From: an uncultured Bacteroidales bacterium
GTDB lineage: Bacteria; Bacteroidota; Bacteroidia; Bacteroidales; FEN-979
Length of the DNA: 64,000 bases
Assembly (NCBI GenBank): GCA_963800585.1
Contig: CAWDBP010000014.1
Coordinates: 116,413 to 180,412, forward strand
Direction of reading: 5' to 3'
Shown: piece after piece, positions 3,633 to 61,663 of the stretch
How positions within the stretch are numbered: position 1 is the first letter of the stretch
How the letters are laid out: every line of letters starts with the position of its first letter
Position numbers and translations under genes: made by a program
The notes under the pieces: generated by a model
What the model saw: the letters and a program-made list of their open reading frames with translations, nothing else
What the model was told of the DNA's origin: nothing
Databases searched by the model: none

Positions 3633-3688
3633 CTCACCACGTCACCATGTCACCACGTCACCACGTCACCATGTCACCAGTTCACCAC
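3633..3688 (-). repeat. 8-nt-period tandem array, TCACC/GGTGA family (array A, 7 units)
   Basis: Plus strand: ctcaccac gtcaccat gtcaccac gtcaccac gtcaccat gtcaccag ttcaccac. The GGTGA strand is the minus strand, which is the trxB coding strand. The array starts 2 nt after the trxB TGA. Confidence 0.95.
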
Positions 3689-3689
3689 T

Positions 3690-4625
3690 TCAGGAACTCA
3701 GAAAACGCTCAGCTTCGATTGCTGCCATACATCCGGTCCCTGCCGCAGTAATGGCCTGCCGGTAATAATGATCTTGCACGTCGCCGCAGGCAAACACGCC
3801 ATCAACGCTTGTGCGGGTCGAGCCGGGAACGGTTTCAATGTAACCCGTCTCACTCATTTCCACCTGGTCCCTGAAGACTTCTGAATTCGGAGTATGTCCT
3901 ATAGCCACGAAGAGGCCGGTAATTTCGAGTTTCCGGGTTTCCCCGGTTTTGACATTCTTGACTAGTAATCCATTAACACCAGAGTCATCGCCGAGAACTT
4001 CCTCAGGAACGCTGTCCCAGATCATCTCGATATTTGGCGTATTCACAACTTTATGCTGCATGGCCTTTGAAGCACGCAACTCATTCCGGCGATGGATCAT
4101 ATAAACTTTATTGCAAAGCTTGGCCAGGTAAGTGGCTTCCTCGGCAGCAGTATCACCTCCGCCAACAATTGCTACATCCTGTTTGCGGTAGAAAAAGCCA
4201 TCGCAGGTTGCACAGGCCGATACTCCCTGTCCCCTGAATTTATTTTCAGTTTCCAGTCCCAACCATTTGGCTGATGCGCCTGTTGCAATAATGACCGTCT
4301 CTGCAAGGATGGTTTTCCCGTCATCGGCCTCAATTTTAAAGGGTCTTATTGAGAAATCAACTTTTGTCACAATCCCAAACCTCACGTCAGTTCCAAACCG
4401 TTGTGCCTGTTTCTTCAGGTCCTCCATCAATTCAGGACCTTGAATGCCCTGTGGGTATCCGGGAAAATTATCCACATCGGTCGTGCTGGTCAGCTGCCCT
4501 CCTGGCTCCAATCCTTCGTATATCACGGGCTTCAGGTCGGCCCTGGCAGCATAAATGGCTGCGGTATAGCCCGCCGGTCCCGATCCGATAATAAGGCACC
4601 TTATATTTTCTGTTGTCACACTCAT
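3690..4625 (-). CDS. trxB: thioredoxin-disulfide reductase
   Basis: Intact 311-aa ORF with an FAD motif (GSGPAGYTAAIYAARA), the redox-active CATCDG, and an NADPH motif (VGGGDTAAEEA). Confidence 0.95.
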   Translation of the reverse strand: MSVTTENIRCLIIGSGPAGYTAAIYAARADLKPVIYEGLEPGGQLTSTTDVDNFPGYPQGIQGPELMEDLKKQAQRFGTDVRFGIVTKVDFSIRPFKIEADDGKTILAETVIIATGASAKWLGLETENKFRGQGVSACATCDGFFYRKQDVAIVGGGDTAAEEATYLAKLCNKVYMIHRRNELRASKAMQHKVVNTPNIEMIWDSVPEEVLGDDSGVNGLLVKNVKTGETRKLEITGLFVAIGHTPNSEVFRDQVEMSETGYIETVPGSTRTSVDGVFACGDVQDHYYRQAITAAGTGCMAAIEAERFLSS

Positions 4626-4648
4626 TCTAACTGGTTATTTCGAGGATG

Positions 4649-4656
4649 CAAAGTTA
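4649..4656 (-). promoter_or_regulatory. candidate Bacteroidota -7 box (TAnnTTTG) for trxB
   Basis: The minus strand reads TAACTTTG, 23 nt upstream of the trxB ATG. Confidence 0.45.
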
Positions 4657-5034
4657 AGAATTTTTAGAATGACCACAGCCCAATCCCAAACACCACGGTA
4701 ACCTTCTCTTATTTCCTACGTATAACGCTTTGACCATTTAACATACCATACCACACTATACTTATGATCTGGTCACTGACATTTCCCCATATGCCTCCGG
4801 TCTCAGGCTTGATACTGCCTTGGCCCGCATATTGATTCGCATTGTGGCTGCAGGACGGATCAATGGACCGGCACATAGCCTTCATATCAAGCTATCACAT
4901 TCAAGTCTGGGCGGAGGATCGGGGAATTAAACGTGTGAAAGATGTAACTTTTTACCACTATTTTGTAACACTTCTCGGAATTTATAGGCACATCTTTGCA
5001 CAATGGAAAATTTTCCATAGTTAAATTTTAAAAA

Positions 5035-5316
5035 ATGGAAACTTCAATTTTCACCATTGCCGAAGAAGAGATTAGTGGTTATGAAAAAATCATTAGCGTC
5101 CTCAAAGTAAGAATAGCAAGCAAGACTAAAGAAAACATTGTTGAAGATGAAAAGACATTAGCGGAGTTGGAACAGAAGGAAAAAGCTTTGAAAAAGAAAC
5201 TGGAAACCTATGAAGACGCAGGAATTGAACTGTGGTATTTCTTTAAATTCAAATTTAACCACGATATGGATAAACTCCGAAAAGCATTGAAATATTTTAT
5301 GGTTACAAGAACTTAG
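5035..5316 (+). CDS. hypothetical small coiled-coil protein
   Basis: 93-aa ORF with a charged, heptad-like sequence (EDEKTLAELEQKEKALKKKLETYED). I recognise no family. It sits in an otherwise empty 750-bp gap. Confidence 0.35.
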   Translation: METSIFTIAEEEISGYEKIISVLKVRIASKTKENIVEDEKTLAELEQKEKALKKKLETYEDAGIELWYFFKFKFNHDMDKLRKALKYFMVTRT

Positions 5317-5395: not shown

Positions 5396-6991
5396 TTTTT
5401 TAGTGGTAATCGTTTGATTGTTGCTGATCATTCTTAGAATATAAACTCCTGACGGATGGTTGGTCAGATCGACGGTATTTATTGCATTTACCATAGTTTG
5501 ATGGTAAACCGGAAGACCGGTGATGTCAGAAATTTCTAATTGTGCGCCAGGAACTGACGCTGGAAGAACGACATTAAAGATCCCCTTGGTCGGATTTGGA
5601 TAAACTGACAGGTTTTCTTCTGTCAGGTGCGAAATGCCCGACGGGAACTCTGTATAGCGGCAAAGCTGATAGTCGGACCATAAGGTATATGCAGCCGCAA
5701 AATAAACTGCGTTGTTGAACGTCACCCATGCCTGCCAGGGATCAAAAGGAGTTCCCCCGGCGGTACCTGGGGGTGTGGGACAAACAGTTCCTGCGGCAGT
5801 ACCGTTTGTAGCAAACAGTTGTTCTTCATCGGAAATAGTGTCATACCCGGTCATTATCAATTTATCCTGGAATGAGAACAATTTCGCGGGATCAAGACCA
5901 TGAGCGAAACTGGTTACTTTGGAAGGAGTGTTGGCTACGCTGTCCATAACCCATAACTGGTTAGTATTTGAAAGTGAATCGTAGCCCGACATGTAAAGCT
6001 TATTCTTATGAACAGCCATCGATGTTGGCTGAAACCCGGAATAGGTACGGTTGGTATAGTCTGTTTTGACTGTTTTAGTTCCCGCAGTCGTTCCATCCGT
6101 TACCCATAACTGGAAATACGCACCGGTATCAGCTCCCATAAAGTACATTTTTGAATTATAAAGAGTAAAAGTACTCGGGTAAAATCCCACGTCACCCGTT
6201 ACATTAATATGGGTAAATTCCAAGGTTCCCCCGGCAGTTCCATCCGTAGCAAAAAGTTGGTTCTCATTTACTCCGTCAGTGGAATTGAAATAGACTTTAC
6301 CGTTATAGGCGAAAAAATAAGAAGAGTAAGCGTCACCTGTGGGGTTTAATCTTTTCAGCATTACGGTTCCCGCAGCAGTACCATCCGAAATCCAGAGCTG
6401 GGTTTGGTTTACGCCATCGTTTGCATTGAAATATATTTTCCCGCCATAGGAATACATATTGGAAATGCTTGCAGGGCCTGTAGAATTGATTGTTTTAACC
6501 AATGTTGTGCCGGCTGCAGTTCCATCCGTTTGCCAGAGCTGATCGTTGATTGGATTGGAATTTGTGTTGTCCCCAGCGAAATATACTTTGTTGTTCAAAA
6601 TCGCATAATTCTCAGAACTCACCGTAATATTGGCAATCGATGATGTCCCTACCGTAGTTCCGTCGCTCTTCCATAAATGGGTCCGGTTGTCGAAAATAAG
6701 CAGGTTGTTCAGTATAGTCAAATGTTCTAATGAAGGATATAGGAGCATCGAATCTATTTGCTTTACAGTGGTAACCCCGGCCGCTGAACCATCGGGGGTA
6801 ACCATCAAGTAATCGACAAACTGTTCGTCATTCGTGCCAAAAAAATAAAGTTTCCCGTTAAATACAGTTAAATTACTTGGATCGAGCCCATTAGTGCCAT
6901 AATAATTCATACTCGTAATCTTCTGTACATATTGTGATTCAACTGTGGTGCAAATCAGCAATACGAAAATCAATGTATAAATCTGTTTCAT
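5381..6991 (-). CDS. ELWxxDGT-repeat secreted protein with T9SS type A C-terminal sorting domain
   Basis: 536 aa with a signal peptide. It has at least 7 repeats of the (Q/H)LW.(S/T)DGT(A/T)(A/V)GT type (LWQTDGTAAGTTLVK, LWISDGTAAGTVML, LWVTDGTTAGTKTV). The C-terminus (LSVYPNPTKGIFNVVL...GVYILRM) is typical of the Por secretion CTD. Confidence 0.85.
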   Translation of the reverse strand: MKQIYTLIFVLLICTTVESQYVQKITSMNYYGTNGLDPSNLTVFNGKLYFFGTNDEQFVDYLMVTPDGSAAGVTTVKQIDSMLLYPSLEHLTILNNLLIFDNRTHLWKSDGTTVGTSSIANITVSSENYAILNNKVYFAGDNTNSNPINDQLWQTDGTAAGTTLVKTINSTGPASISNMYSYGGKIYFNANDGVNQTQLWISDGTAAGTVMLKRLNPTGDAYSSYFFAYNGKVYFNSTDGVNENQLFATDGTAGGTLEFTHINVTGDVGFYPSTFTLYNSKMYFMGADTGAYFQLWVTDGTTAGTKTVKTDYTNRTYSGFQPTSMAVHKNKLYMSGYDSLSNTNQLWVMDSVANTPSKVTSFAHGLDPAKLFSFQDKLIMTGYDTISDEEQLFATNGTAAGTVCPTPPGTAGGTPFDPWQAWVTFNNAVYFAAAYTLWSDYQLCRYTEFPSGISHLTEENLSVYPNPTKGIFNVVLPASVPGAQLEISDITGLPVYHQTMVNAINTVDLTNHPSGVYILRMISNNQTITTKKVIKN

Positions 6992-9146: not shown

Positions 9147-9195
9147 TCAAGAATGCAAAGGTAAAAATTATTTCGGAAACTGGTTTTTTTTCATC

Positions 9196-9292
9196 TCACA
9201 ACATGCCCTCTCCCCTCCTCTCACCACGTCACCACATCACTAGTTCACTACCTCACCAGTTCACTACCTCACCACATCACCAGTTCACCACA
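9196..9292 (-). repeat. composite repeat: TCACAACATGCCCTC + CT-rich tract + TCACC octamer array (array B, 9 units)
   Basis: The 15-nt head (9196-9210) is identical to 11646-11660. The octamers at 9221-9292 are tcaccacg tcaccaca tcactagt tcactacc tcaccagt tcactacc tcaccaca tcaccagt tcaccaca. The tail cattttccgcgtcacgatactc is shared with 61589-61631. Confidence 0.9.
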
Positions 9293-9311
9293 TTTTCCGC
9301 GTCACGATACT

Positions 9312-9333
9312 CCCCTCCCTCTTGGGGGAGGGG
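9312..9333 (-). terminator. GC-rich hairpin just after the stop of the 9350-11566 gene (terminator-like, no U-tract)
   Basis: CCCCTCCC / GGGAGGGG stem read directly, 17 nt downstream of the TGA at 9350-9352. Confidence 0.4.
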
Positions 9334-9349
9334 CCGGGGGTGGGGTGCC

Positions 9350-11566
9350 TCACCTCACCAGCACCACCGTCCCATGCCTCTTGACAGTTACCGGATTTGC
9401 ACTCGACGGCACCACCTCCTGGTAGGTGATCATCCATGCATACGTCCCCGCCGGTGCCGGCCTGCCCTGCAGTTGCCCATTCCACCCGCTATGAAAGTCG
9501 GTCGTTTGAAAAACAAGCGCTCCCCACCGGTCATAGATAAGCATGGAAAAGCCGCTGACATTATCCGCAGTGCTGACAACCCTGAAGGAATCGTTCTCCC
9601 CGTCACCATTGGGAGAAAATGCAGTGGGGACAAATATTGTCGAATCACAGCTTTTTAATTCCACCGAATCGCTCCCTGTGCAAGCATGAACATCCGTCAC
9701 CGTCACCCGGTATATCCCCACATTGGTTGCAGTATAATACCGTCCGGTGCTGCCATCCTGCCACAGGTAAGAAGCAAAACCGGCCCCGGCATCCAGCTGA
9801 ATGGGATCGCCGGCACACAGAAATGGCTTATCCGTGAGGTTGACAACCGGAGGAGCGTAAACAAAAAGTGTCACGGGTAAAGATTCAACCGGGTTTTGAA
9901 CGGCACAGGTCACCGAGGAGTTTAACTGGCATTTGACGACATACCCCTCGGTGAGGCTGTTTGTAATATATACGGGTGAACTCCCCGATTGCACCGGGTT
10001 TCCGTCTTCAGTCCAGGTAAACACAGGTGAAGCGCCTTCATCGGTGGGATGTGCCGTAAACGTCACGACGGTCCCCGGGCAGAATGCCGTATCATCGGCC
10101 GTAATAGTCACACTTACCGTAACGGATGGAGTCACACTCACCGTCACGTCGGCACAGGTTGATACCCCGCAGTTATTTTCCCAGGCAGCATAATACGTGG
10201 TCGTAGTTGTGGGTGATGGGATCGTCAGGCTGTTTGTTGGCCCCGAACCGGCACCAACAAATGTCCCTCCGCAACTTCCGGTATACCAGTTCAGGGTGGC
10301 GCCTGAGCCTCCCGTTGCCGAAAGCGTAATGTTACCGGTATCGCTGGAACAAACAGTTTCATGATCACTGGTTGCAGATACCGGTGCTACGGGTAATACG
10401 CCGGAAACATGCGTAGCCGCAAAGGATGTTTCATTGTAAGCGCTTCCCCGGGCCCGGTTATAATTATTTCCAAAATCATAATCTTGAACATAACGATAAG
10501 CAAAAATTTCATAATAAAGTCCTGAGGGACAGGGAACAGATACCGTGTCGACATAGGTCAGGGTTAATGAATATTTAATAGTTGCGACAACAACCGATCC
10601 TCCGATCATATCCCCCGGAAGATAAGAAACACCGTCCGCAGGCACGCCAAAAACATTGACGGTGTTCCGCAAAATGAGATACCCCTCCGTCTGGTCGGAA
10701 GGATAAACATCAATCATGGCATTCCAGTTCAACGTTACGGGATCGTCAGCCGCAGTGACCGATCCGCTTACAGTCGGATTGTTCCAGGTAGGTTTTCGTA
10801 AACTTCTCCAGTAATCGGAATTTGCGGTGGCCGATGCCGAACATTTATTGGGTAAGCCTAAAGTCACTTGGGTCCCGCCGCCGGCGGAAGACCACGTTGA
10901 ACCATCCTGGGGAGCAAGATTGCCGTATTCATCAAGGTTTGCGCCCGGACAAACACTCACCGCCTCACCCGTGTCAACACTGCTGTTATAATTAAGCTTC
11001 GGCAGCGGAAGCTCATTGAACAAAGACCCCGGAACAGCCCCATGCCCCAGGGCATGAACAAAATTGCCGGAGGCATCCTGGAGAACCAAAAGACCACCGG
11101 TGGGATCAAAATTCAGCGTAGGCCCGTTCAAACCCGGTAGCGTACCGAATGAACCACCGGTAAATACAGGAAATAAAGCAATATCGTTAGCCGACTCCTC
11201 GATATATCCGCATCCTTTGGCTTCAGTTATCGAATGATTGCAGCACCGGGAATCAATAAGAATGATGGTCCCTGCCCGCATATGATTCCAGAAAACAGGA
11301 TCGCTGAATATAATGGCAGGCTCCCAGGCAGTTTGCGTAGCATTGGTATTCTGAAGCTTCCAGTTAACCATATTGGTGTTATCCTGCACCACAAGCAATT
11401 CCGTCCACTCATCCAGCGGCGAAGCCCCGACATAATAACCGCTGATCACCACAGCCGGCGTCTGCGGGAAAGCAGCCCCCACCCCGAAAAAGAAAAAGAG
11501 TAGAAAGAAAATAGCAAAGTTCTTCACGTTCACCCGGTATATAAATACCCGTTTATGTCGCAGCAT
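9350..11566 (-). CDS. large secreted protein with T9SS type B (gliding-motility-associated) C-terminal sorting domain
   Basis: The C-terminus (FVPTAFSPNGDGENDSFRV...YDRWGALVF...WNG...AGTYAW...GTVVLVR) matches the type B CTD. Ig-like Cys-containing repeats lie upstream. The start is set at MLRHKRVF...FFLLFFFFGVGAAFPQ (signal peptide), and a GTG at 11527 is an alternative. The listed ORF start at 11689 lies in repeat DNA. Confidence 0.8.
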   Translation of the reverse strand: MLRHKRVFIYRVNVKNFAIFFLLFFFFGVGAAFPQTPAVVISGYYVGASPLDEWTELLVVQDNTNMVNWKLQNTNATQTAWEPAIIFSDPVFWNHMRAGTIILIDSRCCNHSITEAKGCGYIEESANDIALFPVFTGGSFGTLPGLNGPTLNFDPTGGLLVLQDASGNFVHALGHGAVPGSLFNELPLPKLNYNSSVDTGEAVSVCPGANLDEYGNLAPQDGSTWSSAGGGTQVTLGLPNKCSASATANSDYWRSLRKPTWNNPTVSGSVTAADDPVTLNWNAMIDVYPSDQTEGYLILRNTVNVFGVPADGVSYLPGDMIGGSVVVATIKYSLTLTYVDTVSVPCPSGLYYEIFAYRYVQDYDFGNNYNRARGSAYNETSFAATHVSGVLPVAPVSATSDHETVCSSDTGNITLSATGGSGATLNWYTGSCGGTFVGAGSGPTNSLTIPSPTTTTTYYAAWENNCGVSTCADVTVSVTPSVTVSVTITADDTAFCPGTVVTFTAHPTDEGASPVFTWTEDGNPVQSGSSPVYITNSLTEGYVVKCQLNSSVTCAVQNPVESLPVTLFVYAPPVVNLTDKPFLCAGDPIQLDAGAGFASYLWQDGSTGRYYTATNVGIYRVTVTDVHACTGSDSVELKSCDSTIFVPTAFSPNGDGENDSFRVVSTADNVSGFSMLIYDRWGALVFQTTDFHSGWNGQLQGRPAPAGTYAWMITYQEVVPSSANPVTVKRHGTVVLVR

Positions 11567-11645
11567 AAAGATTGATAGTGACAAAGCTAACAAGATTCCA
11601 AAACATAACCGGTAAATTCCCCCATAAAAATCCCCTGCATCCATT

Positions 11646-11746
11646 TCACAACATGCCCTCCACCCTCTTGCCCTCTGCCCTCCATTCACCTCTCACTACT
11701 CACCTCTCACTAGTTCACCACCTCACCACGTCACTAGTTCACCACA
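11646..11746 (-). repeat. composite repeat: TCACAACATGCCCTC + CT-rich tract + TCACC array (array C, 8 units of 7-8 nt)
   Basis: Same head and architecture as 9196-9292, in direct orientation. The units are tcacctc tcactac tcacctc tcactagt tcaccacc tcaccacg tcactagt tcaccaca. Confidence 0.9.
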
Positions 11747-11753
11747 TTTTTCT

Positions 11754-11761
11754 TACATTTG
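11754..11761 (+). promoter_or_regulatory. candidate -7 box (TAnnTTTG) for prolyl oligopeptidase
   Basis: TACATTTG, 21 nt upstream of the ATG at 11783. Confidence 0.5.
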
Positions 11762-11782
11762 CCTCCTTAAAAACCCAATCCC

Positions 11783-13906
11783 ATGAAAACCCCCTTCACC
11801 TTATTGATGATCCCTATCGCAATGATGAGCTGCAACCAAACCACAACAAAGCGTATAAACTACCCTGTGACCAAAAAGGTCGTGCAGGTAGATGATTATT
11901 TTGGAACAAAAGTAAGCGACCCTTACCGCTGGCTGGAAAACGACACTTCGGCCGAAACAAAGGCCTGGGCAAGAACCGAGCAGGATTTCACCGAGGCTTA
12001 CCTCTCAAAGATCCCCTTCAGGGATAAGATCATGAAACGCTATAAGGAAATATTGAACTACCCCAAGTACTTCGGTGCATTCAAGGCCGGCGATTACATC
12101 TTCTTCTCAAAGAATGACGGACTGCAGAACCAGTCGGTCTATTATTTCCGTAAAGGCCTCACCGGCGAAGACAAGGTATTCCTCGATCCAAACAAGCTCT
12201 CCAAAGATGGTTCCGTATCCGTCGGATTCGACGGCTTCTCAAATGACAAGAAATACCTGGCCTGGCATATTAACAACGGCGGAAGCGACTGGCAGACCAT
12301 TTATGTGACGGAAATTGCAACGCAAAAACAACTGGGAGATAAGCTGGAATGGATAAAATTTGGCGGCATCGCATGGAAAGGCAACGGATTTTATTACAGC
12401 CGCTACAATAAGCCCCCGAAGGGAATGGAGCTTTCCATGAAGAATGAAAATCAGAAGATATATTACCACAAGCTCGGCGACAGGCAGGAACAGGATCAAC
12501 TGGTTTATGAGGACAAGGCACACCCCCGGATGTTCAACGGTGTACAGGTAACGGAAGATGAACGGTATTTGCTGATCAGCAAATCTACCGGAACCGATGG
12601 CACGGAGATCTGGTACAAAAACCTGGCCAACGGGCAGAAGGATTTCAGGCTTCTCTTCCCCGGGTTTGAATTCAACTATGGTGTGATAGATAATGTTGGC
12701 GACAAATTCCTGGTGAACACCAATAATGGTGCCGGCAATTACCGGGTGATCCTCGTCGATCCCCTCCATCCCGAAAAGCAGAACTGGAAAGACATTGTTC
12801 CGGAAAAGCCCGAGAAACTGGAATCTTCCAACATGGTCGGTGGAAAACTCTTCGTGGGTTACCTGAAAGATGCTTCCACAAAGATCTACCAGTACAGCCC
12901 GGATGGCAGGCTCGATCATGAAGTGGCCCTTCCATCCATCGGTTCGGCATCGGCAATCGGAGGATACAAGGACGACACCTATGCATTCTACGACTTCTCC
13001 TCCTTCACCTATCCCCCTTCAGTCTTCCGTTATGATATTGCAACCGGTAAGTCGGAGATCTTTAAAAAAGCCGAGATCAAGGTCAACATCGACGATTTTG
13101 AGACCGAACAGGTATTCTATCCCAGCAAGGACGGAACGAAGATCCCTATGTTCCTGGTCCACAAAAAAGGCCTTAAGCTCGACGGCTCCCACCCCACCCT
13201 CCTCTATGCCTATGGCGGATTTAATGTCAGCTCTACCCCATACTTCAGCAATTCCAAGATCATCTTGTATGAGAACGATGGCATCTACGCCCTGGCCAAC
13301 ATCCGCGGAGGCGGGGAATATGGCGAGAAATGGCACAAGGCAGGAGAGCTGCTGAACAAGCAAAACTGCTTTGATGATTTTATCGCTGCCGCTGAATACC
13401 TCATCGACAAGAAATATACCAGCAAAGACAAGCTGGCCATAAACGGTGGCTCTAACGGCGGCCTGCTCATCGGCGCAGTCGAGACCCAGCGCCCCGACCT
13501 CTTCAAAGTCTGCTTCCCCGAAGTCGGCGTCATGGACATGCTCCGATTCCAGAAGTTTACCGTCGGATGGGGCTGGACCCGCGAATACGGATCGGCCGAC
13601 AGCGCTAAATATTTCCCCTACCTCTACAAATACTCACCCCTGCATAACATAAAAGACAGCATCGAATACCCCGCAACCTTCATCTTAACTGCGGATCATG
13701 ACGACCGCGTAGTCCCGGCCCACTCCTTCAAATTTGCCGCCACCATGCAGGAAAAACAAAAAGGCCCCAACCCCATCCTCATCCGCATAGAAATAAATCA
13801 GGGCCATGGCGCTTCGGGTTCGTCCCTGTCGCAGATCATCAAATCCGAAACCGACAAATGGGCCTTCATGTTCTACACCATGGGCATCACACCAACATAC
13901 AAATGA
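11783..13906 (+). CDS. prolyl oligopeptidase (S9A family serine peptidase)
   Basis: Intact 707-aa ORF. The N-terminus (YPVTKKV..VDDYFGTKVSDPYRWLEND) is typical of the beta-propeller start. The catalytic domain has GGSNGGLL (Ser) and ADHDDRVVP (Asp), plus a HGAS region. Confidence 0.95.
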   Translation: MKTPFTLLMIPIAMMSCNQTTTKRINYPVTKKVVQVDDYFGTKVSDPYRWLENDTSAETKAWARTEQDFTEAYLSKIPFRDKIMKRYKEILNYPKYFGAFKAGDYIFFSKNDGLQNQSVYYFRKGLTGEDKVFLDPNKLSKDGSVSVGFDGFSNDKKYLAWHINNGGSDWQTIYVTEIATQKQLGDKLEWIKFGGIAWKGNGFYYSRYNKPPKGMELSMKNENQKIYYHKLGDRQEQDQLVYEDKAHPRMFNGVQVTEDERYLLISKSTGTDGTEIWYKNLANGQKDFRLLFPGFEFNYGVIDNVGDKFLVNTNNGAGNYRVILVDPLHPEKQNWKDIVPEKPEKLESSNMVGGKLFVGYLKDASTKIYQYSPDGRLDHEVALPSIGSASAIGGYKDDTYAFYDFSSFTYPPSVFRYDIATGKSEIFKKAEIKVNIDDFETEQVFYPSKDGTKIPMFLVHKKGLKLDGSHPTLLYAYGGFNVSSTPYFSNSKIILYENDGIYALANIRGGGEYGEKWHKAGELLNKQNCFDDFIAAAEYLIDKKYTSKDKLAINGGSNGGLLIGAVETQRPDLFKVCFPEVGVMDMLRFQKFTVGWGWTREYGSADSAKYFPYLYKYSPLHNIKDSIEYPATFILTADHDDRVVPAHSFKFAATMQEKQKGPNPILIRIEINQGHGASGSSLSQIIKSETDKWAFMFYTMGITPTYK

Positions 13907-13971
13907 CGTGGTGAACTGGTGACGTGGTAAACTGGTGACGTGGTGAACTGGTGACGTGGTGAACTGGTGAG
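13904..13971 (+). repeat. 8-nt-period array, GGTGA orientation on plus strand (array D, 8.5 units)
   Basis: tgacgtgg tgaactgg tgacgtgg taaactgg tgacgtgg tgaactgg tgacgtgg tgaactgg tgag. The first TGA is the prolyl oligopeptidase stop codon. Confidence 0.95.
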
Positions 13972-14215
13972 TTCTTGTATTATGAATTACCCTGTAAATA
14001 ATTGAACCCTCAGGGGGCTTAGTTAATTCCAATTGCCGTGCAATTTGCACGCCAACTATAATTATATTACTACTGATATTTAACAAGATAAGAATAATAT
14101 CCTCCATATTTATAGCGGTTTCCCGTAAATAACCATTGTGGTTTTCCGCTATTGTCAGAAAAACTATACCTGGCCCGGTCTTTCTTCACTTGGTTTGTTA
14201 ACCAACTTAAAATAC

Positions 14216-14334
14216 TCACCACCTCACCAGTTCACTAGTTCACCACCTCACCAGTTCACTAGTTCACCACGTCACCAGTTCACTAGTTCACCACGTCACC
14301 ACTCACCAGTTCACCACGTCACTAGTTCACCACC
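14216..14334 (-). repeat. 8-nt-period array, TCACC on plus strand (array E, 15 units, with 24-nt higher-order repeat)
   Basis: (tcaccacc tcaccagt tcactagt) x2, then tcaccacg tcaccagt tcactagt tcaccacg tcaccac tcaccagt tcaccacg tcactagt tcaccacc. It is inverted relative to array D. Confidence 0.95.
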
Positions 14335-14408
14335 TTCTTTCTGTCGATATTCCATGCCGATTCGTCGAAAATATCCCCCCTCCATTGCAAAAATATCCCC
14401 ACGAATAC

Positions 14409-14416: not shown

Positions 14417-14442
14417 TGCCCTGTTTTGAATAATCAGACCAC

Positions 14443-15814: not shown

Positions 15815-15816
15815 AT

Positions 15817-20186: not shown

Positions 20187-20213
20187 CCTGAAAATAACTG
20201 GCAAGATTGTAAT

Positions 20214-23701: not shown

Positions 23702-23762
23702 GTCAACCATCTTTCTCTAAACCACAAATACGACAAACGAAATCATAAAGTAATCAAAGAAA

Positions 23763-25273: not shown

Positions 25274-25301
25274 AAAATAAGAAAAACTCACCAGTTCACT
25301 A

Positions 25302-27311
25302 GTTTCCGGGTAGAGCGGATCGTTACCTCCCCGCTCCCCCACAGACCCGGACGAGCAGATTTCCCGCATCCGGTTCCTCAAGTTATGGATTCGCTGCATA
25401 AACAGAGTGAAAGATTTTAGGTTTGGCTAAAACAAAGGTAACCTTTATGAGCGTATTATAGCGATCCCATGTAAAGCCCCTGTTAGAGCGTCTTGAAAGC
25501 CATTTCTTCCAGGTACATGTTACACCCATATAAAATGCACTTAAACTTCGGCTATTGCCTGTAACACCATAGTAACGGTAGTGTCCCAGAAGTTTAGTGT
25601 TTAGCATCTTATATTGGAGAGCTAAGCGCTCATGACAGTTAAATCTGCACCAGTCATTGATCCGGCTTAAACTCCTTTGAAGCCGGTCTTTGGCCGTTTT
25701 CCTCATAACTGTCCAGTACCCTTTCCGGTTTCTGCCCCAATAGTATGTAAAGCCCAGAAAGTTAAACGTTCCACGTTTCCTGTCGTCTTTACTATAACCA
25801 ATGGGCGGTCTTGAGAAGAAAATCAGTTTGGTTTTATCCGGATGAAGCTTTAGCTCGTATCTGGCAAAGCGTTTGGGCAGAACTTTGAAGACCCTCTCGG
25901 CGTCTTCCTTATTCTCAAATCCCAATACACTATCGTCTGCATAGCGTACGATGGTTGCTTTGCCCTTCAATAGGGGTATAATCTCCTCGGCGAACCATTT
26001 GTCCAGCACTTCATGCAGGTAAATGTTGCTCAGCAGAGGTGAGATTACACCGCCCTGCGGGCTGCCTTCATCCTTGTAACTGATAGCTCCTTCTTCCAGA
26101 ACTCCTGCTTTTAACCATTTTCCAATTAATCTTGTGATCACTCCATCTTGCACCCTCTGTTTCAGAAATGACCTTAGGTGTTGATGGTTCATCGTATCGA
26201 AGAACTTTTGGATATCCAGATCGATTACCCAACTTATGTTCTTTGATCCAATCTCCTTCCATAGGTAGTCAACTGCATCATGAGCTGATCTTCCAGGTCT
26301 GAACCCATAGGAGAAATCGAAAAAGTCATTCTCAAAAACTGGTTCCAGCACTTGAAGTACTGCTCGTTGTAAAATACGGTCTTCTATCGTTGGAACGCCT
26401 ATGGGTCGTTGTTCTTTCCCCTTACTCTTGGGAATGTATACACGTTTTACCGGAGGAGCGACATACCTCCCCGATTTAGCACGTTCCAGCAAATCCTCAA
26501 GGTTACTCACGAGGCTTTCCTCATACATCGCCAAAGTTTGGCCATCTACACCTGGACTTGTATCTGGTTTGATCCGCTTGTAAGCTTCCTGCATCCAATC
26601 CATGTCTATGTTGTGATGCAGTGATACCAGTGCTTTGTCCCGGTATTTCTTAGCAATTTCTGCTATTCGATCCTGTTTCGTTGACACATTCATTTGTTCC
26701 TGTGCACACTTTTGTGTTTCTCATTATCGATTCCATAACCCGACGCTCTCCCTTCCCTAATCCCCGGCTCCTTGGGGTATGTTCGCCGGCTTTCAAACGG
26801 TACTATGAAGGCGCTAAGACTGCCTCTGTTCTTCTCCTAACTTCACTCTTCGTTCGTATCGGATACCCCTGACGTGTCTCATCGCTTCGTTTATATCTCA
26901 GGTGAGACGCCTGCGATATACCCGGGCTTAGTTCGACCAGTTGCCCTATTACTGGTTTCTTTTCGTCGGGGAAACAGGAGGCTCTCCCATGTTCCCGTGA
27001 AGCCCTCTTTACATTTGCTCTGTTGTTATACCCCGGACGGATCCTGGCACTCGCCTTAACGTGCTTCAGATACTGTTCCCGCGTTGGTGACAGCGAAAAC
27101 TCCATCAATTGTCTGCCCTTACGAGGCTCGTTTGCACAGCTTTTGTACTCGTTGTCTACGCTTCATGCAAGCATCTCTGCTTACTATGCAAGACTCACTT
27201 CCGGCTGATGGTTAGTCTTTACCGGATAGGATTGATTACCTACTGGGCTTCTTCAAAAGGTTTCAATGAACAACTATATTCCCCTTTTACGGGTTTATCA
27301 TGGCGCAACAC
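25302..27311 (-). mobile_element. group II intron with intron-encoded RT/maturase (boundaries +/- 5 nt)
   Basis: The RT ORF sits in the expected domain IV position, with about 620 nt of 5' RNA (domains I-III). A domain V candidate lies at 25344-25376 (minus: GAACCGGAUGCGG-GAAA-UCUGCUCGUCCGGGUC), followed by a domain VI helix (GAGCGG/CCGCUC) with a bulged A. The 5' end is near GUGUUGCGCC (27311). TCACC octamer units flank it on both sides (25288-25303 and 27312-27326). Confidence 0.8.
25383..26693 (-). CDS. group II intron reverse transcriptase/maturase (no endonuclease domain)
   Basis: 436 aa. RT motifs RPIGVPTIEDRILQRAV, FRPGRSAHDAV and the YADD box (VRYADDSVLGF) are present, plus a maturase domain X (LGFTYYWG..., LLGHYRYYGV). 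The ORF ends without an HNH region. Confidence 0.9.
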   Translation of the reverse strand: MNVSTKQDRIAEIAKKYRDKALVSLHHNIDMDWMQEAYKRIKPDTSPGVDGQTLAMYEESLVSNLEDLLERAKSGRYVAPPVKRVYIPKSKGKEQRPIGVPTIEDRILQRAVLQVLEPVFENDFFDFSYGFRPGRSAHDAVDYLWKEIGSKNISWVIDLDIQKFFDTMNHQHLRSFLKQRVQDGVITRLIGKWLKAGVLEEGAISYKDEGSPQGGVISPLLSNIYLHEVLDKWFAEEIIPLLKGKATIVRYADDSVLGFENKEDAERVFKVLPKRFARYELKLHPDKTKLIFFSRPPIGYSKDDRKRGTFNFLGFTYYWGRNRKGYWTVMRKTAKDRLQRSLSRINDWCRFNCHERLALQYKMLNTKLLGHYRYYGVTGNSRSLSAFYMGVTCTWKKWLSRRSNRGFTWDRYNTLIKVTFVLAKPKIFHSVYAANP

Positions 27312-27326
27312 CAATTCACCAGTTAT

Positions 27327-49298: not shown

Positions 49299-49353
49299 CT
49301 CTATCTTCTATCTTCCATTCACCACTTACCACTCACCATTCACTATTCACCAT
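49299..49353 (-). repeat. degenerate 6-8 nt array of the TCACC family (array G)
   Basis: ttctatc ttccat tcaccact taccac tcaccat tcactat tcaccat. It ends 1 nt from the dnaK TAA (49354-49356). GGTGA lies on the dnaK coding strand. Confidence 0.8.
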
Positions 49354-51273
49354 TTATTTATCCTTTACTTCCTCAAAATCAACATCAGTGACTTCATCGT
49401 TACTGCCTTGCTGTTTTTGTTCAGGACCAGGTTGGGGTCCGGGCTGTGGCCCTTCATTGGGCTGTTGCGGCTGTGCATTCTTATACATATCTTCACTTGC
49501 GCTTTGCCACATCGAATTGAGGTTAGCCATGGCTTTATCAATCCCCGGAAGATCTTTACTTTTATGTGCAGCTTTTAATTCTTCCAGTGATTTCATGATC
49601 GACTCTTTTTTATTTGCCGGTATCTTGTCGCCAAATTCCTTCATCTGTTTTTCCGTCTGGAAAATGAGAGAATCTGCTGTGTTTAATTTATCGATCTCTT
49701 CCTTGAGTCGTTTATCTGTATCTGCATTTACCTGGGCTTCTTCTTTCATCTTCTTGATATCAGCATCTGATAATCCCGAAGATGCTTCAATACGGATCTG
49801 TTGTGATTTCCCGGTAGCTTTATCCCTGGCAGCAACATTCAGAATTCCGTTTGCATCTATATCGAATGTAACTTCGATCTGAGGAATGCCACGTTGTGAA
49901 GGAGGAATGCCATCAAGGTGGAAACGGCCAATGCTTTTGTTTTGATTTGCCATGGGTCGTTCGCCCTGGAGTATATGGATCTCAACTGATGTCTGATTAT
50001 CAGCTGCAGTAGAAAAAACTTCTGACTTTTTTGTCGGGATAGTCGTATTTGATTCGATCAACCGGGTCATGACACCACCGAGGGTTTCAATTCCCAATGA
50101 AAGCGGAGTGACGTCCAGCAAAAGAACATCTTTCACTTCTCCTGTCAGAACACCTCCCTGGATAGCTGCGCCAACGGCTACAACTTCATCAGGGTTTACA
50201 CCTTTTGAAGGTTCTTTACCGAAGAAATCCTTGACCAGTTTTTGTACGGCAGGAATCCTTGTAGAACCGCCAACCAGGATCACTTCATCAATGTCAGACG
50301 TTTTCAGGCCGGCATCCTTCATAGCCTGTTCACAAGGGGGTATGGTCGTCCGCATCAAAGGATCGATCAATTGTTCAAATTTAGCCCGTGAAAGTTTTTT
50401 TACCAGATGCTTCGGAATGCCATCAACCGGCATTATATAGGGCAGGTTGATCTCGGTTTCGGTTGAACTTGATAATTCTATCTTAGCTTTTTCAGCAGCT
50501 TCTTTAAGACGCTGAAGCGCCATCGGGTCTTTCCTCAGATCAATCCGTTCGTCTTTCAGAAATTCATCTGCAAGCCAGTCTATAATAAGGTGGTCAAAAT
50601 CATCTCCTCCAAGGTGGGTATTCCCGTTGGTGGATTTAACTTCAAATACACCTTCCCCGAGTTCGAGGATTGAAATATCAAAAGTTCCGCCCCCCAGGTC
50701 GAAAACGGCCACCTTCATGTCTCTGTTCTTTTTATCCAGGCCGTATGCCAGGGCAGCTGCTGTGGGCTCATTGATGATACGTTTGACATCGAGCCCTGCA
50801 ATTTCACCTGCCTCTTTCGTGGCCTGACGCTGTGAATCGCTGAAGTAGGCTGGCACCGTGATGACCGCTTCCTTTATTTCCATTCCAAGATAATCTTCGG
50901 CGGTTTTTCTCATCTTCTGAAGTATCATGGCGGAAATTTCCTGCGGGGAATATAATTTACCATTGATGTTGACACGCGGTGTGTCATTTTCACCATGATC
51001 AACATGGTACGGCACACGCTTGATTTCTTTTTCAACCTGGTTATAGGTTTCCCCCATGAACCGTTTTATAGAGAAAACAGTATTCTGAGGATTGGTGATT
51101 GCCTGACGCTTGGCCGGATCGCCGACTTTTCGCTCACCATTTTCAGTAAAAGCAACGATAGAAGGAGTCGTTCTCCTCCCTTCACTGTTGGCAATGACAA
51201 CCGGCTCGTTCCCTTCCATGACAGCTACGCATGAGTTCGTGGTTCCAAGATCGATACCAATAATTTTTCCCAT
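49354..51273 (-). CDS. dnaK: molecular chaperone DnaK (Hsp70)
   Basis: [18 protein letters not shown]..., [10 protein letters not shown] and the full Hsp70 layout are present. The start is set at the conserved [10 protein letters not shown] rather than the upstream in-frame ATG at 51327. Confidence 0.97.
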
Positions 51274-59543: not shown

Positions 59544-59633
59544 AATCAGAATATTATAACTTGAGTTTGTTCCACAAAACTTTTATTACCGCGAAGATGC
59601 AAAAACGCAAATATTTCAAACTCAAAGATATAT

Positions 59634-59668
59634 TTCTTAGCGAAACTTAGCGTCTTAGCGCCTTAGCG
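59634..59668 (-). repeat. CTTAGCG 8-10 nt tandem array (4 units)
   Basis: ttcttagcg aaacttagcg tcttagcg ccttagcg. The minus strand reads CGCTAAG, putting a TAA in each unit, and is oriented with the upstream M28 gene. A related cttagcg/ttagca pair sits at 24516-24550. Confidence 0.85.
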
Positions 59669-59723
59669 GTATATTTTTGTCTGTTTCTTACAAGCAGGTC
59701 ATTTTGTTATTCCCCACCTTTAT

Positions 59724-61508
59724 TTATAACATTATTATCAGCACTTCTATTTTTCCGTTCCTCAGCACTTCAACATTGACGGTTTGACCTTGTTTCAGTT
59801 TTCCCAGGCGTGACATATATTCATAAATGTTGCCAACCGACAATCCGTTGATGGAAACAATAATATCGCCTTTCAGCATTCCTCCTCTGTATGCCGGGCC
59901 ATCTTTTGTGACACCATCAACCCTTAATCCTTTTTTCTCTGTTCCTGCAAAATCAGGCATGATCCCGAGGGTTACCTTCATCCGGCGCCCTCCCCTTCCA
60001 TAACCTTCCTTTTTGCCCGATTCATGAAAAGTCAGGTCTTTTGGCAGGTTATCAACATTCATGATGAGGTTATAACTGAAATCGCCGATCTCTTTCTCTT
60101 TTTGATAATCCAGTTTATCGGCCCTGTCAAAAGGGGTATGATAATCCATATGGGAACCGGTTGTAAAGAAGAAGACAGGAATATTGGAGGCATAGAACGA
60201 GGCATGGTCGGAAGGTCCGTAACCGTCGGGCGAATGGGTGACGGTAAACGGGAGATCTTTTTCATAGATACGGATTATTGAATCGGCCTCAAGCGAAGTC
60301 CCGGTACCGCTTATTGAGATTGAACTTTTCTCTTTATCGAAACGGCCTACCATATCGAAATTGAACATGGCTTTTATCTTTTTCATGTCAACTGGTGAAT
60401 GATCGGTAAAATATTTTGATCCCAGCAGCCCCATCTCCTCTCCGCTAAACGAAATCAGGATAATACTTCTCTTCAACCGATTTTTCTCAGGCGCCAGTTT
60501 CCCGGCAAGTTCAATTACCATCGCCGTTCCCGATGCATTATCGTCGGCGCCATTGTGAATGGCAACCGTATCGGGCATCCTGGAACCTGAACCCGGACCG
60601 CCAAAACCCAGATGGTCATAATGACCTCCTATGACAATATATTCATCTTTTAAAACAGGATCGTTTCCTTCAATCATGCCGATTACGTTCTTTGTCCTTG
60701 CTTTTTTCTGTATAAGCTCGGCAGATGCAGAAACTACCACAGGAAGTACGAGGGTTTTGGGTTTTCTTGTTTTATTAAGGATCTTTTCCAATGAATCCAG
60801 TTTAAATCCGGATGACTTTAATAGCAGATTCCCCACCTCCCTTTTAATATTAATTACCGGGATACCTGAAGTAACGTCATTATTTTCCGAGTGAAGTCCG
60901 ATAAGTTTATCGTCTTTATCCACTGCAACCGGTGTAACTATCAAAACACCTGCAGCGCCATGGTCTTTTGCCACCAGCACCTTTCCCCTGATCTCGGTAA
61001 AGGGGATAAATTTACTTTCATTATTATCCAGTTCGGGGTCGCCCCTGAATAGCATTACCCATTTTCCTTTCACATCCAATCCTTCGTAATCTTTCCACTT
61101 CAGGCTGTCCTGGTCGATGTCAAACCCATATCCAACAAAGACGACGTTACTATTGACAGTCCCGTTTGAAGAATAAGCAACCGGCATGAAATCCTTGTTC
61201 ATAGATCCCACGAAATCATCAAATTTTAGTGCATTATGAGGTCCTGCCGTGACATCAGTCACGATCTCGAAATATTGAAAACCATTGTCACAGATCAGCT
61301 TCAGCCCTGAAGCGATAAACTGTTTGCGAATGTAATTTGCAGCAACATCAGCTTCCTTAGTTCCCGGCTTCCGGCCTTTCAATGAATCGGAAGCAAGAAA
61401 ATAAACATCCGTCTTAAGTTCTTTGGCAGTGATCTCAGGGTTGCGCTGTGCAAAAACAGCGTCGGTAACGAATAACAGGAAAAAGAGAAAAAATTGAATT
61501 CTTTTCAT
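59724..61508 (-). CDS. M28-family metallopeptidase with PA domain and C-terminal PDZ domain
   Basis: 594 aa with a signal peptide. It has an M28 core (VIGGHYDHLG...GADDNASGTA...FSGEEMGLLGS...FNFDMVG) and a C-terminal PDZ-like segment (GMLKGDIIVSINGLSV). Confidence 0.85.
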   Translation of the reverse strand: MKRIQFFLFFLLFVTDAVFAQRNPEITAKELKTDVYFLASDSLKGRKPGTKEADVAANYIRKQFIASGLKLICDNGFQYFEIVTDVTAGPHNALKFDDFVGSMNKDFMPVAYSSNGTVNSNVVFVGYGFDIDQDSLKWKDYEGLDVKGKWVMLFRGDPELDNNESKFIPFTEIRGKVLVAKDHGAAGVLIVTPVAVDKDDKLIGLHSENNDVTSGIPVINIKREVGNLLLKSSGFKLDSLEKILNKTRKPKTLVLPVVVSASAELIQKKARTKNVIGMIEGNDPVLKDEYIVIGGHYDHLGFGGPGSGSRMPDTVAIHNGADDNASGTAMVIELAGKLAPEKNRLKRSIILISFSGEEMGLLGSKYFTDHSPVDMKKIKAMFNFDMVGRFDKEKSSISISGTGTSLEADSIIRIYEKDLPFTVTHSPDGYGPSDHASFYASNIPVFFFTTGSHMDYHTPFDRADKLDYQKEKEIGDFSYNLIMNVDNLPKDLTFHESGKKEGYGRGGRRMKVTLGIMPDFAGTEKKGLRVDGVTKDGPAYRGGMLKGDIIVSINGLSVGNIYEYMSRLGKLKQGQTVNVEVLRNGKIEVLIIML

Positions 61509-61559
61509 TGAAATCAGTTTGAAAGTTTATAAAGTAACAAAGTAAAAATAATTTTTAAC

Positions 61560-61663
61560 TCACCAGTTCACCACGTCACTAGTTCACCACATTTTTTCGC
61601 GTCACGCGTCACGCGTCACGCGTCACGATACTCACCAGTTCACCACGTCACTAGTTCACCACA
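61560..61663 (-). repeat. array H: two copies of a 32-nt block (4 TCACC octamers each) separated by TTTTTTC + (GCGTCAC)x4 + GATAC
   Basis: tcaccagt tcaccacg tcactagt tcaccaca occurs at 61560-61591 and again at 61632-61663. The heptamers cgcgtcacgcgtcacgcgtcacgcgtcacg lie between them. The last 4 codons (NVVN) and the TAG of mnmA lie inside the second block. Confidence 0.95.

Follow-up and report, generated by a model that had tools for sequence, protein, structure and literature searches.

The 64,000-nt stretch of contig CAWDBP010000014.1 analysed here (the window, to whose positions all array coordinates refer) carries purL, trxB, a tRNA-Pro gene, a prolyl oligopeptidase (POP) gene, a TolC/MFP/RND efflux operon, carB, dnaK, panB and mnmA, together with type IX secretion genes that encode cargo proteins (CHU_C, Por_Secre_tail, PKD repeats) and PorP/SprF. 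These secretion genes and the Bacteroidales relatives of the region identify the host as a member of the Bacteroidota; a cyanobacterial origin, guessed from heptamer repeats, was ruled out by the CHU_C and Por_Secre_tail genes and by the same relatives. At the boundaries of these genes lie tandem arrays of short units that read TCACC on a C-rich strand and GGTGA on its G-rich complement. The arrays are real, lineage-specific and turning over, confined to gene boundaries, polar, hairpin-forming when paired, and targeted by one lineage of group II introns. We regard them as probably constituting a lineage-specific octanucleotide family of long simple sequence repeats (LSSR), a kind of bacterial satellite made by slippage and polar in placement, whose paired arrays are gene-end hairpins.

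Arrays were called with Tandem Repeats Finder (TRF) and each was then read directly. Both procedures bear out the proposal of a first-pass annotation of this DNA that a tandem octamer family occupies at least eight intergenic gaps, since ten array segments lie in eight gaps where that annotation had placed them. The arrays and their associated features are listed below; an array is G-sense with respect to a gene when its G-rich strand, NNYRGTGA, is the sense strand.

3634..3692, plus strand: TCACC array of 7.4 units with a 24-nt higher-order repeat (TRF, direct reading, contig L115)
9192..9217, plus strand: direct repeat CATYTCACAACATGCCCTC..., with a second copy at 11642-11667 (repeat comparison)
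9221..9291, plus strand: TCACC array of 8.9 units, G-sense downstream of the CHU_C gene 9350..11689(-) (TRF, direct reading)
9310..9339, minus strand: hairpin module CCCCGGCCCCTCCCCCAAGAGGGAGGGGAG, separating the CHU_C stop from the array 9221-9291 (direct reading)
9350..9368, plus strand: mini-array at the end of the CHU_C gene, its minus strand reading ...GGTGCTGGTGAGGTGA, of which the last TGA is the stop codon (direct reading)
11686..11745, plus strand: TCACC array of mixed 7- and 8-nt units in a divergent gap (TRF, direct reading)
13904..13970, minus strand: array that reads GGTGA on the plus strand, 4.2 x 16 nt, the 5' arm of an inverted pair (TRF, direct reading)
13971..14215, no strand: A/T-rich spacer of 245 nt, the loop of a predicted long hairpin (fold prediction)
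14216..14332, plus strand: TCACC array of 14.8 units (4.8 x 24 nt), the 3' arm of the inverted pair (TRF, direct reading)
25288..25303, plus strand: two array units on the 3' exon side of the intron (direct reading, pattern match)
25304..27308, minus strand: group II intron with a reverse transcriptase (RT) ORF at 25383..26693, its 3' boundary uncertain by 1-2 nt (Rfam, Pfam, copy comparison)
27309..27326, plus strand: array remnant on the 5' exon side, the minus strand reading TAA-CTGGTGAATTGGTG from the carB stop (27327-27329)
49300..49356, plus strand: degenerate variant of period 7 (TRF, direct reading)
61560..61590, plus strand: TCACC array of 3.8 units forming a 32-nt block (TRF, direct reading)
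61598..61627, plus strand: self-complementary CGCGTCA heptamer array x 4.3 between the two 32-nt blocks (TRF)
61632..61662, plus strand: second 32-nt TCACC block of 3.8 units (TRF, direct reading)

TRF assigns the arrays a period of 8 (7 for 49300-49356), 3.8-14.8 copies and 72-97% matches. The uniform 8-nt period first ascribed to the family therefore holds for the seven main TRF arrays, while 49300-49356 departs from it and 11686-11745 mixes 7- and 8-nt units. The units are TCACCAGT, TCACTAGT and TCACCAC[G/C/A], also TCACCATG and TCACTACC; they are contiguous, as had been said of their lack of spacers, and each array has a higher-order repeat of its own of 16, 24 or 32 nt, in keeping with the organization that had been described. 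In the window the degenerate two-unit pattern TCACYASNTCACYA matches 41 times against 0.01 expected from dinucleotide-preserving shuffles, and a four-unit pattern 21 times against none. Head-to-tail units of 1-11 nt, at a length and frequency beyond chance, place the arrays among simple sequence repeats and LSSR. Altogether they amount to 524 nt and, although they take up 32-74% of the gaps in which they lie, make up 4.8% of the DNA outside ORFs in the window, which contradicts the impression that they fill much of its non-coding space. Nor are they strictly intergenic as had been supposed: the stops of trxB, POP, dnaK and carB stand at the first array unit, and the last four codons of mnmA and the CHU_C stop lie inside units. 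The C-rich strand is almost free of stops and therefore yields spurious 'HHVTSSP' open reading frames (ORFs), correctly recognized as such from the start, and fusions of neighbouring ORFs.

Many conserved genes of the window are frameshifted relative to intact orthologs on the JGI contig L117: purL (262-3516) falls into at least seven pieces, and the OEP and MFP genes (14437-16894) and carB (27327-31631) are split. These splits probably reflect long-read indel errors in an error-prone assembly rather than pseudogenes, which lessens confidence in the exact copy numbers of the longer arrays, and they are what could be adduced for the explanation that the arrays themselves are artefacts of such an assembly. 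The short-read Logan contig L115 (run ERR11571142), however, matches the whole array 3634-3692 base for base, and contigs L121 (ERR11571142) and L122 (SRR35911547) terminate at one same base within the array 61632-61662, where a repeated 32-mer would break a k-mer assembler. Logan contigs from two independent runs thus carry the arrays, providing the read support on which the first-pass annotation had made their reality depend, and the TCACC family is present in many other assemblies; an artefact is already refuted as an explanation of their existence, and we give it practically no weight. In all, three Logan contigs end within tandem arrays, two in the TCACC family and one (L115) in a heptamer tract of purL. 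Exact look-ups found one other assembly that spanned an array, with identical copy number; they returned no record for the POP and DnaK proteins, and an exact search of JGI metagenomes with array flanks gave no match.

The G-rich strand contains one TGA per 8 nt, so that any 24 nt of it supply a stop in each of the three frames. Six of the eight gaps hold a G-sense array that begins at the stop codon of a gene or in phase with it (trxB, POP, carB, dnaK, mnmA and CHU_C). The minus strand of 3634-3692 reads TGA-AGTGGTGA-ACTGGTGA..., the trxB stop (3690-3692) being the first TGA in phase; 13904-13970 starts with the TGA stop of the POP gene (11783..13906, plus strand); the minus strand of 49300-49356 runs TAAATGG TGAATAG TGAATGG TGAGTGG... 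from the dnaK stop codon; and the last four codons and TAG stop of mnmA (61651..62739, minus strand) form part of the block 61632-61662. Elsewhere, the 3' end of the array 11686-11745 lies 7 nt upstream of a conserved POP promoter-proximal block (TACATTTG), and the array 14216-14332 precedes both a TACCTTTG box near 14413 and the TolC-like OEP gene. A gene whose stop is touched by an array has the G-rich strand as its sense strand, and the C-rich strand is invariably directed at the adjacent gene, which in the window applies to six stops and two promoter-proximal sites. Orientation tracks the neighbouring gene and not the replication strand, flipping three times within 11.7-14.3 kb. As regards phase variation, six of the eight gaps have their array after a stop, only 11686-11745 adjoins a promoter and the start of a cargo gene, and the one array that could be compared is identical. 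A consensus scan for canonical sigma-70 promoters and terminators gave no terminator excess and nothing consistent beside the arrays. A G-rich array of 7/14/28-nt periodicity (GGAGGAC / GAGGACGGAAGTCA) at 62789-62862, upstream of mnmA, turns its C-rich strand towards the mnmA start and so fits the same polarity.

The polarity extends beyond the window. A scan of one genome per species returned at least 114 loci among the matches listed, from many phyla (counts not being comparable between patterns), and all genome counts below refer to such listed loci. For 130 arrays from 114 of them, judged against mechanically called ORFs no shorter than 150 aa, an upstream stop was no more than 12 nt away for 43 of 62 arrays in G-sense and for 5 of 59 in C-sense (Fisher p = 3e-12), a contrast inflated in the stop-inside-array class because stop-rich arrays terminate any ORF that enters them. 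The excess persists when distances of 0-12 nt only are counted at loci below 56% G+C (21 of 40 versus 5 of 44, p = 5e-5). At loci below 56% G+C, unrelated 7-8-nt units show 18 of 24 in G-sense versus 4 of 24 (p = 1e-4), so that the placement rule depends on strand composition and not on the TCACC sequence. Array-free gaps showed no general G excess after stop codons. In JGI metagenomes an exact 23-mer, sought on both strands, occurs at six loci, and all five that have an upstream ORF carry a G-array beginning 0-9 nt past the stop or at the stop codon itself.

The unit itself is probably not special across bacteria. Viral contigs hold 10 stretches of the target pattern as compared with 23, 7 and 25 of three permuted-unit controls, so its wide spread across phyla is probably a generic octamer background, and on this ground a conserved cross-phylum element was rejected. 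The specific feature is the proliferation of one unit family within particular genomes, several loci each coming from a few genomes among the matches listed (OY820914.1, a Chitinophagaceae metagenome-assembled genome (MAG), a Phycisphaeraceae MAG and others). These viral counts, with the rapid turnover of the arrays between relatives, would suit neutral microsatellites of random placement and orientation, the null set up by the first-pass annotation. Placement and orientation are, however, strongly polar relative to stop codons: the stop contacts in genomes, the five of five metagenome loci and the invariant order of paired arrays described below (17 versus 0) all go against randomness, and of about 33 control arrays in viral contigs only 2 begin 0-12 nt past a stop. 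Neutrality of this kind is already disfavoured and we hold it to be very improbable.

The exact start of arrays where ribosomes terminate could also suggest mimicry of Shine-Dalgarno (SD) or anti-SD sequences, with GGUGA pairing to UCACC of the 16S 3' tail and holding the post-termination 30S subunit, or Chi-like or protein-binding sites acting at the DNA level. TCACC, and TCACCTC at 11686-11712, match the 16S 3' end, GAUCACCUCCUU, and ACTGGTGA shares CTGGTG with E. coli Chi, GCTGGTGG. Yet Bacteroidota largely do without SD pairing and their anti-SD is sequestered, unrelated units with neither SD nor Chi resemblance obey the same rule, the 8-bp spacing sets successive sites on different faces of the helix, and orientation follows the neighbouring gene rather than replication, so that we consider mimicry of either sort extremely unlikely.

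Taking as a pair two arrays of opposite orientation no more than 400 nt apart, we find all 17 adjacent inverted pairs ordered G-array, spacer, C-array and none in the reverse order (binomial p = 1.5e-5). The order is identical on both strands, so any transcript meets the G arm first and the C-rich strands point outwards. In the window, 13904-13970 and 14216-14332 form such a pair, which overturns the statement that the family includes no long inverted repeat, and the region 13895-14350 has a predicted fold of -160.7 kcal/mol (z -12.5 against mononucleotide shuffles). Predicted folds of other pairs reach -47.8 kcal/mol at L203 (z -9.1), -40.8 at L206 (z -8.5), -36.9 at L208 (z -4.3) and -61.7 between nuoA and nuoB at L119 (z -7.1). 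Many pairs, among them those at L020, L038, L059, L094 and L208, span convergent genes stop to stop, with one arm in contact with either stop, in the position usual for bidirectional terminators; in OY820914.1 another unit family, AATGAAGT/ACTTCATT, occupies such a convergent gap as a perfect inverted array. The window (CCUUCUUUCU) and L208 (UUAUUUA) have U-rich tails, which are absent from the nuoA-nuoB pair and from pairs that touch both stops. At L119 (19537-19702 of OY820914.1) the G-array lies 5 nt after the nuoA stop and the C-array 20 nt before the nuoB start, and the predicted hairpin is a candidate RNase III or processing site.

Solo arrays were also considered as structured RNAs, a possibility rejected because the G- and C-strand folds of arrays 3634 and 13904 have z-scores of -0.9 to 0.0 against shuffles (G-strand about 0) and values of -3.1 to -3.4 appear only with palindromic ACTAGT or CGCGTCA units. 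Cryptic partners for solo arrays were dismissed likewise, as duplex energies with downstream and upstream flanks differ modestly (-31.1 versus -27.4 kcal/mol, p = 0.004). Rfam finds no match in the window beyond the tRNA and the intron.

The array flanks bear on the possibility that the arrays are arms of a mobile hairpin element, similar to REPINs (doublets of repetitive extragenic palindromic sequences, REP) or to miniature inverted-repeat transposable elements (MITEs), copied behind stop codons and leaving solo arrays as decayed halves. The G-strand typically ends in GGTGA-GT followed by A/T-rich sequence, for example GTTAAAAAT(T/A)A in two arrays of the window and GTTAAAAAGTATTTTT at L208; where arrays are paired, the A/T-rich part makes up the loop. 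Two window arrays have ATTTTYCGCGTCACGATAC in common. A hairpin module followed by an array stands behind different genes in the window and in L116 (CCCCTCCCCCAAGAGGGAGGGG), the architecture of G-array, loop and C-array resembles REP doublets, and direct repeats and arrays bracket a CHU_C gene that is absent in L116. Array edges, on the other hand, showed no target-site duplications or defined terminal inverted repeats; a Pfam scan of 30 window ORFs (smaller ones fell outside it) gave no match to Y1/RAYT or any other transposase; each site has its own unit order and copy number; and obedience of unrelated units to the placement rule speaks for a general filter or process and not for a single element. 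A mobile origin therefore seems to us quite unlikely.

The composition of the C strand invites a different functional explanation, in which the arrays are selected as Rho-dependent polar insulators whose C-rich, G-poor, unstructured tract faces polymerase heading into the adjacent gene and would act on antisense transcription at 3' ends and on read-through upstream of promoters. Arrays of at least 31 nt are 37-47% C and 0-10% G on this strand, four of five C-strand RNAs tested (76-141 nt) are nearly unstructured, with minimum free energies of -2 to -10 kcal/mol, and lengths are typically 57-117 nt, in agreement with a footprint of about 60-80 nt for Rho primary sites. On composition and structure the C strand thus has the features of a Rho utilization (rut) site (C-rich, G-poor, unstructured, about 60-80 nt), the direction in which it faces, at the six stops and both promoter-proximal sites, is the appropriate one, and the placement rule follows composition and not unit sequence. 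In paired elements, however, the C arm would be sequestered in the G arm, the array-free gaps with their lack of G excess after stops argue against general selection of such a type, and arrays are lost or replaced between close relatives. We consider selected insulators unlikely.

The opposite strand could instead offer a platform for proteins that bind single-stranded RNA, one protomer per 8-nt G/U/A-rich unit of (NNUGGUGA)n or (ACUGGUGA)n in 3' untranslated regions, candidates being the RRM-1 (RNA-recognition motif) proteins RbpA/B/C of Bacteroidota, cold-shock proteins and S1. RbpB of B. thetaiotaomicron bound a threefold G/U/A octamer, GUAGGAUA, in vitro (Kd 5.1 uM) and not a C/U-rich motif, and RRM motifs are typically 5-8 nt (bioRxiv 10.1101/2021.04.27.441718); binding of S1, Csp or CsrA has been proposed for the TAACTGA repeats (MacGregor 2015, PMC4679880); and the G-strand is the transcribed sense strand at gene ends. 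The resemblance is nevertheless one of base composition alone, RbpB crosslinking and immunoprecipitation (CLIP) peaks fall mostly in coding sequences and small RNAs with no GGUGA motif reported, and turnover of units and compliance of unrelated units with the placement rule fit poorly with a sequence-specific binder. Such a platform appears distinctly improbable.

Comparison with relatives shows how rapidly the units are exchanged. POP shares 83% protein identity with its counterpart in the complete MAG OY820914.1 ('Bacteroidales bacterium'), 86% with that of L117 and 92% with that of the contig L116. L117 and the window have in common the gene order purL, trxB, secretion cargo, POP, OEP, MFP, RND, carB, with a larger carB-RND distance in the window. 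The trxB-purL and POP-OEP gaps of L117 contain no arrays, and the trxB and POP stops are at exactly the same position; the POP stop is TAA in L117, and TGA-CGTGGTGA..., the start of the array, in the window. Behind the POP stop of L116 come the hairpin CCCCTCCCCCAAGAGGGAGGGG and, at the contig end, the start of a GGTGA array, so that the module of hairpin and array (CCCCTCCCCCAAGAGGGAGGGG/CCCCGGCCCCTCCCCCAAGAGGGAGGGGAG) stands behind POP there and behind CHU_C in the window. The POP promoter-proximal block with TACATTTG, a match to the Bacteroidetes -7 consensus TAnnTTTG, is common to the window, L116 and L117, and at the same edge of this block a TCACC array ends in the window and a GGAGAAT heptamer array in L116. 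At the MFP-RND gap the unit is AATCGTA (x 7) in the window but TAATTCC (x 4.7) in L117; beside tRNA-Pro there are CGTGACG heptamer arrays in L117, to which the CGCGTCA array 61598-61627 is related, and TATCGTGACGCG followed by an octamer array in the window. Other unit families of the window include TTTTACCA, CGCGTCA, CTTTACA, AATACCT, GGAGGAC and AATCGTA, and those of OY820914.1 include CATTCCTG, AATGAAGT and CAATGAA. Slots persist while units turn over, and the arrays are young and lineage-specific.

Further repeats were seen in the course of this comparison. In purL (ORF 2344..3516, minus strand) a perfect ATTACGA x 4 lies in frame at 3245-3273, turning the peptide SANELRIANQDK into SNYELRITNYDK at a length equal to the L117 ortholog (L117 3684-3711); purL of L117 carries a heptamer tract of another unit, CGTCACG x 4, near residue 564, and L115 ends in the purL tract of the window. 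Periodic tracts therefore arise within coding sequence too, which suggests that near-repeats can be homogenized even within an essential gene. The CHU_C gene (region 9147-11782) is bracketed by the direct repeats 9192-9217 and 11642-11667 and by the arrays 9221 and 11686; it is absent in L116 (3050-3280), where tRNA-Pro is directly next to POP with an integrase gene on the other side of the tRNA, so its gain or loss looks array-mediated or tRNA-linked. The second octamer family, TTTTACCA (up to 7 copies), occupies two gene ends, at 20206-20268 and 23762-23846, and at both sites flanks a terminator-like hairpin, CCTGCCGTAGGCAGG (CCTGCCG(N)AGGCAGG), followed by TTTT; the U-tract of these sites itself appears to have been expanded into a repeat. 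A REP-like 46-nt tandem element with two small hairpins (GCCCTGAAAGGGC, CCCCCGGTGTAACCGGGGG) is present at 24334-24379 and 24404-24449 (93% identical), with a weaker copy at 5728-5773. Several consecutive minus-strand ORFs between 37800 and 45400, one of them encoding a 1029-aa PKD-repeat protein, contain coding repeats with a period near 800 nt (families D3-D9). They lie 5' (upstream) of the minus-strand PorP/SprF gene and may be fragments of a single giant type IX secretion adhesin that frameshifts have broken up.

The array behind carB is interrupted by a group II intron; the first-pass annotation had already described the array 25288/27312 as split by an intron. RF02005 (118 bits) and RF00029 (40.1 bits) both score above gathering, the RT ORF matches RVT_1 with E = 2.4e-40, and ribozyme domains, an intron-encoded RT and pairing of exon- and intron-binding sites (EBS, IBS) are all in place. 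The intron interrupts the array's G-strand just past the carB stop and has the same orientation as carB. It was compared with a 94%-identical copy at L187 and with 78%-identical copies elsewhere (L195, L198, L199), which fixes the 5' junction at ...AACTGGTGAATTGGTG|TTGCGCC. In the window EBS1 is CACCAA (reverse complement of 27084-27089) and pairs with the 5' exon IBS1 TTGGTG; at L187 EBS1 CACCAC faces IBS1 GTGGTG and at L198 TAACTA faces TAGTTA, a clean match, with one wobble or one mismatch at L195 and L199. The EBS1 loop thus covaries with the last six exon bases across five insertion sites, and in every one of the five 5' exons G(G)TG(G)A precedes the junction by about 8-13 nt. Together these indicate that the intron homes into two successive G-strand units, the array being its target (NNTGGTGA)n, and explain its presence in one array, with whose unit its EBS1 pairs. 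No convincing EBS2 candidate was located in the intron, and the claim is limited to EBS1/IBS1. The intron begins with UUGCGCC, not GUGYG, and the L187 RT copy (97% identical) lies in a mobile-element context (VapE-like primase, HTH_17), also past a two-unit GGTGA motif.

Our favoured account of the TCACC arrays, as a slippage-made satellite whose pairs are gene-end hairpins, can be put together as follows. Slipped-strand mispairing or unequal exchange would make and resize the arrays, to judge from their structure and turnover, and selection would keep them only where 8-nt steps are harmless; as each such step shifts the frame, arrays survive only at gene boundaries, after stops and upstream of promoters. 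Since the order of G-array, loop and C-array is invariable, either transcript folds into a long hairpin that tolerates shifts by whole units, and paired arrays, often running stop to stop, may terminate transcripts or protect 3' ends in the manner of REP sequences and bacterial interspersed mosaic elements (BIMEs). Solo arrays would be largely passive half-elements, providing backup stops in three frames on the sense strand and, on the antisense strand, a C-rich, G-poor, unstructured rut-like RNA of the type on which Rho loads. The repeated GGTGA units also serve a group II intron lineage as homing sites, as the EBS1/IBS1 covariation shows.

In addition to the inflated stop-contact count, several points weigh against this account. 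Every one of its functional steps is inferred from sequence. Most arrays are solo, 34 of 177 being in recognizable pairs, and solo G-strands without ACTAGT units fold no better than shuffles. The nuoA-nuoB pair lies inside the nuo operon, where termination would harm, and where the arms touch both stops there is no space for a U-tract, which sets such pairs apart from canonical intrinsic terminators. Slippage alone leaves unexplained the exact start of arrays at the stop codon and the flanks shared between non-orthologous sites (the hairpin module, the GT and A/T-rich 3' flank, ATTTTYCGCGTCACGATAC). The shared flanks suggest some dispersal mechanism, possibly template switching or REPIN-like mobility; polar spreading to the first constrained base is a further possibility. 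Rho-dependent insulators, a protein platform and SD/anti-SD or Chi mimicry all rank below the satellite account. A broader proposal, which we find doubtful, is that tandem 7-8-nt arrays form a general class of gene-boundary elements, defined by composition and not by sequence and rebuilt by slippage in conserved slots whose units turn over; their C-rich strand, facing the adjacent gene, would act as a polar, Rho-loading insulator, pairs would make shift-tolerant terminator or stabilizer hairpins from stop to stop of convergent genes, and a group II intron lineage with an EBS tuned to the unit would use the arrays as safe landing pads.

To our knowledge, short tandemly repeated repetitive (STRR) sequences, LSSR and TAACTGA repeats have been familiar for decades in some lineages without an agreed function, and termination and post-transcriptional signals of Bacteroidota are poorly mapped. 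The regularities found here, namely stop contact, the G-to-C order, stop-to-stop hairpins and conservation of slots, yield concrete testable hypotheses for this phylum. In practice, such arrays break short-read assemblies, create spurious C-strand ORFs, fuse ORFs and attract a group II intron, and even if the hairpin and insulator interpretations prove wrong they would remain a clean example of selection filtering a strong slippage bias.

The arrays do not lie outside the kinds of repeat already described, as had first been thought. LSSR of 5-11-nt units are known from prokaryotes (Mrazek, Guo and Shah 2007, as summarized in PMC4679880), and the features given there, head-to-tail 7-8-nt units beyond chance length, concentration in non-coding DNA, restriction to some lineages and attribution to slippage, are those of the present family; the summary mentions no polarity at stop codons, no G-to-C pairs and no Bacteroidales octamer family. 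More generally, no description of these repeat sequences turned up in the literature consulted, in which the 2007 study is represented by that summary, and within the same sources on such repeats the Bacteroidales octamer family, composition-dependent stop polarity, exclusive G-to-C order and unit-matching EBS1 are not described. The TAACTGA heptamers of Beggiatoaceae, Cyanobacteria and Bacteroidetes and the STRR heptamers of cyanobacteria are likewise without an agreed function (MacGregor 2015, PMC4679880). They too are lineage-restricted intergenic short units at many loci, with stops in all frames in forward orientation, arrays a few nucleotides from gene boundaries and other repeat families in the same gaps, and at L207 (about 620-720 of Ga0307939_1039291) GGTGA octamers run directly into TGATAAC/TGAAGAC heptamers, a rotation of the TAACTGA repeat, so that one array physically links the two. 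TAACTGA repeats, however, have period 7 and lie mostly just upstream of start codons, whereas the TCACC arrays have period 8, mostly touch stops and form inverted hairpin pairs; an 8-nt unit in a Bacteroidales host also sets them apart from cyanobacterial STRR.

That the family is not CRISPR (clustered regularly interspaced short palindromic repeats), HIP1, classical REP/BIME or MITE, as initially judged, stands. There are no spacers between units and Pfam scans of 30 window ORFs gave no cas-family match; HIP1 is a dispersed palindromic octamer (GCGATCGC) while the present units are tandem and non-palindromic; and array edges show neither target-site duplication nor fixed termini, lengths varying by whole units, unlike MITEs. 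The homing of the intron recalls that of introns such as class C into repeated or terminator-type safe sites, with non-coding DNA past a stop, sense orientation and a recurring sequence in common, but here EBS1 pairs with the repeat unit itself, with covarying IBS1, and there is no recognition of a terminator stem. Likeness to the REP/BIME/REPIN sequences of proteobacteria lies in the extragenic position behind stops, the partly conserved flanks, which suggest dispersal, and the long imperfect hairpin of the paired form, an inverted doublet represented by the 17 G-to-C pairs (-37 to -161 kcal/mol, z -4 to -12.5) that might stop 3' exonucleases or end transcription. The arms, however, are tandem octamer arrays and not a 20-40-nt palindrome, solo arrays are non-palindromic direct repeats, and no REP-associated tyrosine transposase (RAYT) occurs among the 30 window ORFs scanned. 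Bidirectional intrinsic terminators offer the last comparison: in both, a stable stem-loop fills the stop-to-stop gap (L020, L038, L059, L094, L208), and some arrays are A-rich before the G arm and T-rich after the C arm, but the stems here are 24-70 nt of repeats, the loops are 8-245 nt, and the U-tract is often missing as the arms touch the stops.

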